Shown here: piece after piece, positions 2,548 to 4,579 of the stretch
How the letters are laid out: every line of letters starts with the position of its first letter
Numbering within the stretch: position 1 is the stretch's first letter
DNA from: a virus
Lineage: Duplodnaviria > Heunggongvirae > Uroviricota > Caudoviricetes
Reading direction: 5' to 3' (one strand)
Length of the DNA: 4,639 bases
Virus record (IMG/VR): IMGVR_UViG_2734482591_000017
Notes under the pieces: generated by a model
Databases searched by the model: none
The model's input: only the letters and a program-made list of their open reading frames with translations
What the model was told of the DNA's origin: nothing
Position numbers and translations under genes: made by a program

Positions 2548-2583
2548 GGGCGTTTTATGCCTGACGTTAGAAGAGTTTCTACA

Positions 2584-2607
2584 ACCCGCCGCCGAGCGGG
2601 TTTTTTA
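2584..2607 (+). terminator. Intrinsic terminator (tR'-like) ending a short (~65 nt) leader RNA from the candidate pR'
   Basis: GC stem cccgc / gcggg (2585-2589 with 2596-2600), 6-nt loop, followed by TTTTTTATTG (2601-2610). Confidence 0.6.
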
Positions 2608-2645: not shown

Positions 2646-2721
2646 GGCCCTTTAGCTCAGTGGTGAGAGCGAGCGACTCATAATCGCCAGGTCGCTGGTT
2701 CAAATCCAGCAAGGGCCACCA
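2646..2721 (+). tRNA. ileZ: tRNA-Ile2 (anticodon CAU, presumably lysidine-modified); ileX/ileZ-like
   Basis: 76 nt with 7-bp acceptor stem GGCCCTT/AAGGGCC, D-arm GCTC/GAGC, anticodon loop CU-CAU-AA, T-loop TTCAAAT, discriminator A and encoded CCA. Very close to E. coli ileX as I recall it, so Ile2 is preferred over Met. Confidence 0.85.
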
Positions 2722-2820
2722 TCACAAACCGCCATTAGCTTATCAGGAAGAGCAGACGACACGATAACAGGGTTGTTGGTGCGGGGGCGGGTCCCCGATG
2801 GCGGTCCATTATCGGTATTC

Positions 2821-2897
2821 AGCGTTGTTAGCTCAGCCGGACAGAGCAATTGCCTTCTAAGCAATCGGTCACTGGTTCGAATCCAGTACAGCGCGCC
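2821..2897 (+). tRNA. tRNA-Arg (anticodon UCU, reads AGA/AGG); argU-like phage tRNA
   Basis: 77 nt with acceptor stem GCGTTGT/ACAGCGC (one G-U pair), anticodon stem ATTGC/GCAAT, loop CT-TCT-AA, T-arm ACTGG TTCGAAT CCAGT and encoded CCA. Confidence 0.85.
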
Positions 2898-3008
2898 ATA
2901 TTCATTCTTCCAGATTCCTTCCGGCAGAGCCTTATACTGAAATATACCTGGCTCAGGATATTGTTGAAAATATTTTATGTTTGTCAAAAATAAAAGTTCT
3001 GTTAAGTA

Positions 3009-3362
3009 TTGATTGAGTGTTTGTTATACGGTCTAATGGTTTTTTCAGCATTAAATATTTATCATTCATATGGTGTGGGTAGAGTGAATATTGATGAGGC
3101 GTCGGGGTGTTTCATCCTTAGGCAGCGTATTGATATAGTCAATGCAGCACGAGCAAAGGCCTTCAGCCGTTTGACAGTTTTGTTCTGTACTCCTGATCGT
3201 CTTTCGGGAAGAGACGTTATTATTCTGAATAGTGATGCTATACAGAGGGTTTGCGATGAGTTCATGGTTGCTAATTCAGAATTATTTGCTCTTGTTCAGG
3301 AGTACAACAGAATAGCCAGGACCTGTGGTATGGATGAACTTCGGATTACTCATCTGGGGTAG
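3009..3362 (+). CDS. Hypothetical protein, up to 117 aa; start ambiguous (TTG 3009, ATG 3036, GTG 3084), no convincing Shine-Dalgarno
   Basis: ORF track entry. It occupies the position of stxA in Stx phages but has no resemblance to Stx. Rare-codon rich (3 AGA, 3 AGG, 3 AUA). Could be non-coding or a decayed gene. Confidence 0.3.
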   Translation: MIECLLYGLMVFSALNIYHSYGVGRVNIDEASGCFILRQRIDIVNAARAKAFSRLTVLFCTPDRLSGRDVIILNSDAIQRVCDEFMVANSELFALVQEYNRIARTCGMDELRITHLG

Positions 3363-3442
3363 ATACATATCTGGATTATCACCTGTTACGGTAAAAAGTG
3401 ATTGCTTACTGTTTTTGTGAATGGCATTGCAGCAGCCGGATA

Positions 3443-3529
3443 ATGTCAGTGCTGGCTGACGGTGTGCTGGTGGCGGGTGTGGTGGTTGTTGCTTTCCCGT
3501 TGCTGAAAAAGAAAACGCCAGACTGTTAG
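3443..3529 (+). CDS. Candidate 28-aa hydrophobic mini-protein MSVLADGVLVAGVVVVAFPLLKKKTPDC (possible small membrane peptide); GTG 3398 would give 43 aa
   Basis: Read manually; below the ORF-track length cutoff. One predicted transmembrane-like stretch followed by KKK. Locally GC-rich codons (GTG/CTG/GGT) contrast with the AT-rich surroundings. Weak Shine-Dalgarno. Confidence 0.2.
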   Translation: MSVLADGVLVAGVVVVAFPLLKKKTPDC

Positions 3530-3670
3530 CCGGGTATCAGTTAGCGGGAGAAATTTTTAAATACTTCACAATTCAGGCGGTTGACTGTTGTCTGGTTTGC
3601 GGGGAGTTTGTTAAAAGAAACTGGCATGGTGAATCCCCCTGTGCGGAGGGGCAATCAGCGAGTAGGTATA

Positions 3671-3679
3671 TGGGATAAT
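3671..3679 (+). promoter_or_regulatory. Candidate extended -10 promoter element TGgGATAAT
   Basis: TG at 3671-3672, hexamer GATAAT at 3674-3679. No good -35. It would start a transcript of about 100 nt ending at the 3754-3790 terminator. Confidence 0.25.
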
Positions 3680-3753
3680 CGCGGATTCAGGTGCTGGTAC
3701 TGAATTCACCGGGAGGCACCCGGCACCATGCAATGGCACATAGCGCCACTCTC

Positions 3754-3790
3754 CAGCCCCTCTCCGGAGGGGCTGTTTATATTGATTTTG
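3754..3790 (+). terminator. Strong intrinsic (rho-independent) terminator, plus-strand orientation
   Basis: Perfect 9-bp GC-rich stem CAGCCCCTC / GAGGGGCTG (3754-3762 with 3767-3775), loop TCCG, then U-rich tail TTTATATTGATTTTG (3776-3790). Confidence 0.65.
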
Positions 3791-3807: not shown

Positions 3808-3839
3808 CCTTATGGACTTTGTTGTTTTAGTCCATAAGG
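3808..3839 (-). repeat. Perfect 11-bp inverted repeat (hairpin) covering the stop codon and last codons of the minus-strand ORF
   Basis: CCTTATGGACT (3808-3818), 10-nt loop, AGTCCATAAGG (3829-3839). No clear U-tract follows on the minus strand, so it may be a 3' stabiliser or weak terminator. Confidence 0.45.
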
Positions 3840-4145
3840 ACATATTTGCAGAGTGCAACGGTTATTAAAGCATTCATTCAATACGTTATCTGTATTTGTA
3901 GGGCATTCCTGGCTATTTTTGATTGAATTCCAGAATGTTTTATTGAATGGTACTACGTTGTAAATGGTTACAGGTAGCACTTTGTTATTGAGCATGATGC
4001 CTGTGTGAGTCAGTGTAAATATACTTTCAGGAGGTAAGAAAGCATCCGATTGATACCAGATTATTAATTTTATTTTACTCCATATGACTGAAAAAGATAT
4101 TCCGCATGATGGCTGGATAACTGTATCAATCACAATCCACTTCAT
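3810..4145 (-). CDS. Hypothetical protein, 111 aa, antisense to the phage late operon; Trp/Ile/Asn-rich, no recognised family
   Basis: ORF track entry, verified codon by codon. ATG at 4145-4143 preceded by AAGGA with 6-nt spacing (plus-strand 4152-4156). Stop is TAA at 3812-3810. Six of its 13 Ile codons are AUA. Confidence 0.55.
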
Positions 4146-4212: not shown

Positions 4213-4405
4213 CCATAGAGCAGAATTATTTTTCTGATGTTGTTTATTGTTTATTTAAATGCAGGGTGGTTTATATCTCGTCTTGTAGTTTATCCATGCA
4301 TATCTGCTTGATAATCAGGTTTTTATTTAAGGTATGGTTTTGTGTTTTTTCTGTATTACATGTCAGGTATTTTAAAGAATTATTTTTCAGATGGTGGAAA
4401 GAACC

Positions 4406-4579
4406 ATGGCATTTAAACACTATGATGTTGTCAGGGCGGCGCCGCCGTCAGATCTTGCGGAAAAGCTGACACATAAACTGAAAGAGGGCTGGCAGCCGTT
4501 TGGTAGTCCGGTGGCCATAACCCCTTATACCCTGAGGTGTACTGGCAATAGCGGACACTACCATTTGTTCTTTTTTTAA
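4406..4579 (+). CDS. DUF1737-like small phage protein (57 aa from ATG 4406; ORF track starts at 4391), possibly the 5' part of a longer frameshifted gene
   Basis: MAFKHYDVVRAAPPSDLAEKLTHKLKEGWQPFGSP... matches the YDVVRA...LAEK...KLxEGWxPxG pattern I recall for DUF1737 proteins between Q and the lysis genes. GGTGGAAAG precedes the ATG. The ORF ends in TAA directly after a T7 run (4571-4577). Confidence 0.45.
   Translation: MAFKHYDVVRAAPPSDLAEKLTHKLKEGWQPFGSPVAITPYTLRCTGNSGHYHLFFF

Follow-up and report, generated by a model that had tools for sequence, protein, structure and literature searches.

The DNA analysed here (the window, 4,639 nucleotides of the Caudoviricetes record IMGVR_UViG_2734482591_000017) comes from a Qin-like lambdoid prophage of E. 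coli or Shigella and covers its late regulatory region, with insertion sequence (IS) debris at the left end of the window. Its principal features are collected in Table 1. The left-end sequence of IS2 occurs twice, at positions 1-540 and 780-945, with a repeated segment at 407-540 and approximately 810-945. An InsC-like protein is encoded on the minus strand of this sequence (85-495), and a fragment resembling the C-terminus of an IS21-family IstB lies between the two copies (541-730). These IS identifications were made by reading the translations by eye and are not tool output. A run of Ns (1427-1676, 250 nt) interrupts the upstream part of Q and the RusA gene that precedes it; together with an ambiguous base at 543 it indicates that the source was a draft or scaffolded, IS-rich and Shigella-like genome. 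A near-identical locus in NZ_CP048322.1 has the same gene order inside a full prophage inserted next to ompW, and its Q orthologue is annotated as 'antitermination protein'. In this intact orthologous locus (L001) a holin gene is found about 1.4 kb downstream of the gene that is the subject of this study, and the window ends before the holin.

Table 1. Features of the late regulatory region in the window.
Feature	Position	Strand	Evidence
Q late antiterminator gene, 284 aa	1689..2543	+	Pfam Antiterm PF03589 E=7e-55; phrog_127 E=1e-110
Intrinsic terminator-like hairpin and T-run, tR' position, just 3' of Q	2583..2607	+	terminator scan
tRNA, anticodon CAT	2646..2721	+	ARAGORN; Rfam tRNA 72.5 bits
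Decayed middle tRNA-Arg(UCG) (argN of Stx phages)	2722..2821	+	alignment with phi346
tRNA-Arg(UCU), reads AGA and AGG	2822..2898	+	ARAGORN; Rfam 68 bits
In-frame 25-codon extension, most likely untranslated leader	3009..3083	+	stops in relatives; no SD-like pairing
Gene for 92-aa protein, GTG start, phrog_2873	3084..3362	+	dN/dS, HMM match, conserved GTG
DUF3927 / TciB-like small membrane protein	3398..3529	+	Pfam DUF3927 E=1.7e-27; phrog_1470
iraM, 111-aa ORF	3810-4145	-	gene name from orthologous locus; phrog_4407 E=3.1e-72
Truncated DUF1737 gene	4391-4579	+	family-model match only to residue 50, divergent beyond

The DUF3927 gene starts 36 nt downstream of the 92-aa gene, with which it is probably co-transcribed. 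Between DUF3927 and iraM there is a full-length STnc100 sRNA on the plus strand (3595-3784; Rfam RF02076, 132 bits, E=5e-30), closed by a strong terminator at 3754-3775. A 2026 preprint has linked STnc100 to the prophage PasD sRNAs (10.64898/2026.05.13.724894). The orthologue of iraM is annotated as the anti-adapter protein IraM, a stabiliser of RpoS, and the gene represents reverse-oriented cargo in the late region; its ORF is very AT-rich (GC 0.34) and contains 5 AUA codons. The orthologue of the DUF1737 gene is flagged as a pseudogene with its C-terminus missing.

The first-pass annotation placed an ORF of 117 codons in the stxA position of a Stx-type phage, with two tRNA genes 100-350 bp upstream, and both of these statements were borne out. 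The ORF is preceded by the Q gene, the terminator and a tRNA module that shares 87% identity with its counterpart in Stx2a phages (86.9% over 300 nt, query positions 47-347), and ARAGORN located a tRNA(CAT) and a tRNA-Arg(TCT) 111 to 363 nt upstream of 3009. In the terminator scan the hairpin at the tR' position has a stem of 7 pairs, 5 of them GC, and then TTTTATTG. Phage phi346 has Met(CAT)-Arg(TCG)-Arg(TCT), with stxA beginning 90 nt later. The tRNA(CAT) of the window is identical over its whole length to the first of these tRNAs, and its tRNA-Arg(UCU) is the near-identical orthologue of the third. The middle tRNA-Arg(UCG) was not detected in the window by either ARAGORN or Rfam. When this segment is aligned with phi346 it is seen to keep the 5' acceptor and D-arm and the T-arm and 3' acceptor, and the anticodon arm has been replaced. 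Arg(tcg) is intact in two related loci, 276 nt upstream of the gene.

The identity of the tRNA(CAT) deserves comment. It is labelled Met by ARAGORN, and annotations of this tRNA in phages and in the literature are often 'Met', but PGAP labels the orthologue in the near-identical locus tRNA-Ile. From the PGAP label and from its identity to the first tRNA of the Stx2 module, it appears to be of the Ile2 (ileZ/ileX) type. An Ile2-type CAT tRNA reads AUA after lysidine modification. A difference was also seen in the anticodon loop of the tRNA-Arg(UCU) (2856-2862), which has A37 in the window (CTTCTAA) and G37 in the Stx2 phage copy (L105, phi346; CTTCTGA). In tRNAs that read ANN codons this position is normally occupied by a modified A, which may make the Stx-phage copy the exception.

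Whether the ORF is a gene at all had been left in doubt, with the suggestion that it could also be non-coding. Comparison of its relatives removes most of this doubt. The E. coli sequences fall into clades 1 (which includes the window), 2 (L009), 3 (L106) and 3b (L012), which share 68-72% nucleotide identity over 276 nt with zero indels. In five clade pairs the Nei-Gojobori dN/dS was 0.22-0.32 in the frame of the ORF and 0.86-1.39 in the other two frames, and third codon positions held an excess of the differences (for example 24/22/43; chi-square P 0.003-0.036). The proteins of three E. coli lineages are about 60% identical and align without gaps. A protein search recovered both near-identical proteins and a second lineage, the latter 54-61% identical, while a profile search against 1.84 billion representatives found 20 relatives. 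These include a third E. coli lineage (P0024, 63%) and remote relatives of 91-106 aa and 21-40% identity, of which one is from the Citrobacter freundii complex. Disruption of the frame in orthologous prophages, which would have spoken for non-coding DNA, was looked for and not found in the core. All 84 of the clade-1 loci keep the 279-nt frame intact with at most 2 positions changed relative to the window, and the 103 loci fetched reduce to 17 distinct core sequences, every one of which is intact. Rare broken versions do exist, with an in-frame deletion (P0008), a frameshift (P0013) or an IS2 insertion (P0019), each having 1-5 members.

The selection signal confined to one frame, the gapless divergence and the existence of remote homologues together indicate that 3084-3362 is almost certainly a real coding gene. 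A chance open frame in non-coding DNA, such as a spacer or regulatory region 3' of the tRNAs, could account for the lack of a strong ribosome-binding site, the ambiguous start, the AT-richness of the region and the want of an annotation (PGAP had called no gene at the clade-1 copy in any of the clade-1 RefSeq records among those listed). It would not, however, be expected to show constraint solely in the ORF frame or to remain free of gaps at about 70% nucleotide identity. Nor would it have relatives of 21-43% identity with the same length and genomic slot, a canonical Shine-Dalgarno (SD) sequence in clade 3 or a structure predicted with confidence. This explanation is thus extremely improbable and largely refuted already. 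With coverage of at least 80% required, the gene is found in 1236 of 5426 complete E. coli genomes (about 23%), and CFT073 and O55:H7 DEC5E are among its carriers. When the core was compared by tblastn with 50,697 phage records mEp460_ev081 was the sole match. Two ORFs on the minus strand, at 2953-3069 (annotated in mEp460_ev081) and 3062-3265, are unsupported, as selection is seen in the plus frame alone. A terminator-like hairpin inside the gene (3198-3216) is not conserved in clade 2 and was set aside as due to chance.

The start codon was described at first as ambiguous. It is true that a frame of 117 codons plus stop is open from TTG 3009, but the unit that is conserved is the shorter one of 92 codons beginning at GTG 3084, and we conclude that translation very probably starts there. 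The GTG is shared by clades 1, 2 and 3 at equivalent positions, and the remote homologues of 91-95 aa have their first residue within a few residues of it. The absence of a strong ribosome-binding site was likewise correct for the window, where the SD at GTG 3084 is weak, but not for the family, since clade 3 has the canonical AGGAG-taga-GTG where the window reads GUGGG-uaga-GUG. The calculated anti-SD pairing energy is -6.9 kcal/mol for clade 3 and -4.5 kcal/mol for the GTG of the window. In the window, then, GTG 3084 would be used behind the weak Shine-Dalgarno-like GGUGUGGG.

A longer protein with a hydrophobic N-terminal extension, of 117 aa from TTG 3009 or 108 aa from ATG 3036, has also to be considered. 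The frame is open from 3009, the 108-position phrog_2873 matches residues 10-117, NCBI/GenBank records carry the 108-aa version, and a minority of clade-2 sequences (P0014, P0015) retain a similar in-frame extension. Against this, stops close the extension in the form common in clade 2 (cluster P0016, which includes P0078, a sequence present on more than 1000 contigs), and in L009, L012 and L094 they are found 5, 10 and 3 codons before the start, respectively. In P0017-type loci an IS2 directly upstream of the GTG replaces the extension without loss of the core. Neither of the upstream starts is preceded by SD-like pairing (-0.9 kcal/mol for TTG 3009 and -2.4 kcal/mol for ATG 3036), and all remote homologues begin near the GTG. 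Translation of the longer form is therefore improbable. The first 25 codons are probably a leader, and the 108-aa form in GenBank and phrog_2873 is probably an over-extended call. A block at 3048-3083 that abuts the start codon is conserved across clades, and the segment conserved between clades begins at about 3006. In clade-2 loci L003-L008 an IS2-type element lies immediately 5' of the GTG in at least 24 contigs, the leader being replaced and the 92-aa frame intact.

The counts of rare codons that had drawn attention to this ORF are exact. It has 3 AGA (codons 25, 68 and 101 in the 117-codon numbering), 3 AGG (38, 80 and 104) and 3 AUA (43, 78 and 102), that is 9 of 117 codons or 7.7%, where about 8% had been claimed, and 8 of the 9 are in the 92-aa core (8.7%). 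A comparison with the host had been proposed as a check, and this too agrees. AGA, AGG and AUA make up 0.69% of codons in the flanking host genes, so that the load of the core is about 12 times that level (P about 3e-7). Relative to the 58 coding sequences of the same prophage, in which these codons amount to 2.08% (190 of 9119), the load is about 4 times the average (P about 7e-4). The ORF is not alone in this respect, as it ranks second in rare-codon share among the prophage genes listed. The other rich genes are a hypothetical gene of the early region (9.3%), another hypothetical gene (7.5%), xis (7.3%) and a head closure gene (7.1%). In phi346 the corresponding values are 7.2% for stxA and 0% for stxB.

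A high load is not in itself evidence of selection for rare codons. Given the amino acid sequence and the base frequencies of the ORF, 7.1 rare codons are expected in the core against the 8 observed (P=0.42), and the +1 frame contains 8 of the same trinucleotides. The share of AGR among arginine codons (5 of 10) and that of AUA among isoleucine codons (3 of 9) are close to their expectations of 0.42 and 0.33. The gene merely fails to avoid codons that are rare in the host, and there is no enrichment beyond composition. We consider it likely that the rare codons are explained by composition rather than by adaptive coupling to the tRNAs. The high content of AGA, AGG and AUA would then be a passive result in an AT-rich, horizontally mobile gene that was never selected to avoid host-rare codons.

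The alternative is that rare codons have been maintained so that translation depends on the adjacent tRNA-Arg(UCU) and tRNA-Ile2, which would restrict the protein to times when the late transcript carrying the tRNAs is expressed. Plunkett and colleagues reportedly proposed in 1999 that the tRNAs of Stx phages serve rare codons, and several features of the locus could be read in the same way. In essentially every clade-1 locus the tRNAs are found 186 nt (Arg(UCU)) and about 363 nt (Ile2) upstream of the gene, and clade 1 is the richest of the family, with 8 rare codons in 92. Clade 2, which has no tRNA or has Ile2 and Arg(UCG) 2.2-3.6 kb upstream, has 3 in 92; clade 3, without any tRNA within 5 kb, has 5 in 92; and the Citrobacter-like lineage, with a tRNA-Thr 2.2 kb upstream, has 1 in 95. 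Three of the rare codons are clustered in AGA-AUA-GCC-AGG at core codons 76-79, and stxA, behind the same tRNA module, has a comparable load.

On closer inspection these features do not favour coupling over composition. Apart from the agreement of the count with neutral expectation, the arginine positions conserved across clades are CGN in clade 1, bar one AGA that is common to clade 2. The AGR and AUA codons specific to clade 1 have come mostly from amino acid replacements at variable positions, and there are only two synonymous isoleucine switches (ATT or ATC to ATA). Clade 3 keeps its rare codons with no tRNA nearby, and small genes of the same prophage distant from the tRNAs, such as xis, are equally rich. 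Clade 1 is moreover nearly clonal, so its linkage with the tRNAs counts as one evolutionary event. Because composition and the tRNA-less homologues explain the richness, the presence of rare codons beside phage tRNAs is no proof of coupling, and we regard adaptive coupling, with the restriction on expression that it would entail, as unlikely. The ranking 8 > 5 > 3 > 1 in the four lineages compared is compatible with a modest relaxation beside the tRNAs. Co-transcribed tRNA-Arg(UCU) and tRNA-Ile2 could make rare codons harmless during late expression across the whole prophage (2.1% as against 0.7% in the host). The proposed parallel with the logic of Stx phages thus holds in part: the load equals that of stxA, but a tie between the codons and the adjacent tRNAs is not supported.

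The position of the gene suggests how it may be expressed. It would be transcribed mainly by Q-antiterminated read-through from pR', on one transcript with the tRNAs and DUF3927. A candidate pR' consists of TTGATT at 2508-2513, a 16-nt spacer and TGgTAAATT ending at 2535, and matches 8 of 12 consensus positions; it was read by eye and was not reported by the promoter scan. Over this region neither the promoter scan nor the terminator scan gave results above chance. Q-dependent late transcription, which is suggested by gene order and by analogy with lambda and the Stx phages, is on balance somewhat favoured. It is also conceivable, if rather unlikely, that the gene is a moron expressed in the lysogen without the need for Q, with a promoter of its own inside the AT-rich 185-nt spacer, and that it benefits the host as iraM and STnc100 presumably do. 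That spacer contains a match of sigma-70 type (TTGAAA-16-AAAAAT, 2964-2991), the neighbourhood is dense in host-directed accessory elements (iraM, STnc100, DUF3927), and in clades 2 and 3 the gene lies 3' of a gene for an AraC-family regulator. However, promoter-like matches numbered 4 where 2.6 were expected from shuffled controls, and the candidate at 2964-2991 is outside the segment conserved between clades.

The protein belongs to a family that has already been catalogued, in PHROGs and among the hypothetical proteins of NCBI, without an assigned function. All its members are named 'hypothetical protein' in the databases. The 117-aa ORF matches phrog_2873 over the full length of the model (E=3.8e-70; residues 10-117 against model positions 1-108) and the 92-aa core does so with E=5.6e-58. 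The model differs from the core in having 16 extra N-terminal positions, which go back to genes called from ATG 3036 and probably remain untranslated. All nine aligned family members match phrog_2873 and eight of the nine match phrog_4827. Scans of nine members against Pfam, NCBIfam and PADLOC gave only scattered single-member matches (E>=0.009), and with the ORF itself Pfam returned nothing at E<=1 except a spurious RHIM match. From an alignment of seven sequences AlphaFold2 predicts an antiparallel two-helix hairpin with helices at 3-35 and 50-81 (pLDDT 84, pTM 0.72), and the loop that joins the helices, F-C-T-P-D-R-x-S-G, is the most conserved segment of the family. Fold searches with the predicted hairpin found no informative match. 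The best match in a profile search of the PDB was UPF0335 (E 0.054), which was rejected.

We conclude that this is a cytoplasmic protein of 92 aa, and that its gene is an accessory member of the late operon in a Qin-like lambdoid prophage. The sole clue to function comes from genomic context, which points to a late-operon accessory protein acting by protein binding, possibly with the TerB-like and DUF3927 pair described below. A helical hairpin with a conserved TPDR loop would most likely bind another protein, and its place, in two other lineages, in a cassette with TerB-like and DUF3927 genes just before the lysis genes would, speculatively, suggest a role late in infection. A protein-binding role linked to the lysis-proximal cassette is a tentative possibility.

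Gene order is consistent across the family in its main outline. In every lineage the gene lies between Q and the lysis genes. DUF3927 follows it in 82 of the 84 clade-1 loci. In L106, L012 and L094 the genes after it are, in order, a TerB-like gene, DUF3927 and Phage_holin_8, and the arrangement gene, TerB-like, DUF3927, holin, endolysin is found in clade 3 and in the Citrobacter-like lineage. DUF3927 was also looked for downstream of the gene in clade 2 and is absent there. Clades 2 and 3 have a different cargo set in the same slot. In L009, L106 and L107 the gene is directly 3' of the AraC-family (HTH_18) regulator gene, which encodes 241-242 aa, and in these clades a gene for an N6/N4 DNA methyltransferase is also upstream, all of these being between Q and the lysis genes. 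It might be imagined that the hairpin protein, the TerB-like protein and DUF3927 form an unrecognised late module placed before the holin that modulates lysis timing or host physiology, and that it is gated by tRNA through AGA-AUA-GCC-AGG in the clade carrying ileZ-argO. As a whole this is very improbable.

Taken together, the observations are best explained by a real 92-aa accessory gene of the late operon that occupies the stxAB slot, starts at GTG 3084 and owes its rare codons to composition, and we hold this combined explanation to be reasonably probable. Its value lies mainly in annotation and in a negative result on the idea of tRNA-supported cargo. About 23% of complete E. coli genomes carry this gene, which is usually not called by RefSeq and, where it is called, has its start placed 48 nt too far upstream; with the start corrected a clean 92-aa family is available for functional work. 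The parallel with stxA in tRNAs and rare codons is numerically real but ordinary. As the slot is known to carry lambdoid cargo of high impact such as Stx, a conserved protein in this position is a reasonable, although low-priority, candidate for phenotype screens by knockout or induction.

Two known systems invite comparison. The first is the cassette of TciA (TerB-like) and TciB (DUF3927) in phage JLK-2012 and its relatives, which occupies the same late-operon slot from the tRNAs to the lysis genes. DUF3927 is directly 3' of the gene in the window, but the window has no TerB-like gene, clade 2 has no downstream DUF3927, and JLK-2012 itself lacks a homologue of the 92-aa gene. The second is the Stx2 phages of the 933W type (Q - pR'/tR' - ileZ-argN-argO - stxAB - (nanS-p) - lysis genes). 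In Stx2 phages the tRNA genes are always located between q and stx, except in the Stx2f phage phi467, where the stx region is inverted (PMC7366253). The product of the gene has no relation in sequence or fold to Shiga toxin. It is a single helical hairpin of 92 aa and not about 315 aa, without a RIP domain or signal peptide, and the next gene is DUF3927 and not stxB. The phages also differ, in that phi346 has another type of Q protein, the middle tRNA (argN) is decayed in the window, and the window phage is a Qin-like resident prophage of about 23% of complete E. coli genomes and no toxin converter. In organisation, however, the resemblance is close. The gene lies in the same slot downstream of Q and the terminator and before the lysis cassette, as judged from the holin of the intact locus. 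It is preceded by a homologous tRNA module, the cargo begins 90-190 nt after tRNA-Arg(UCU) in both cases, and the load of AGA, AGG and AUA codons in the 92-aa gene (8.7%) is close to that of stxA (7.2%).
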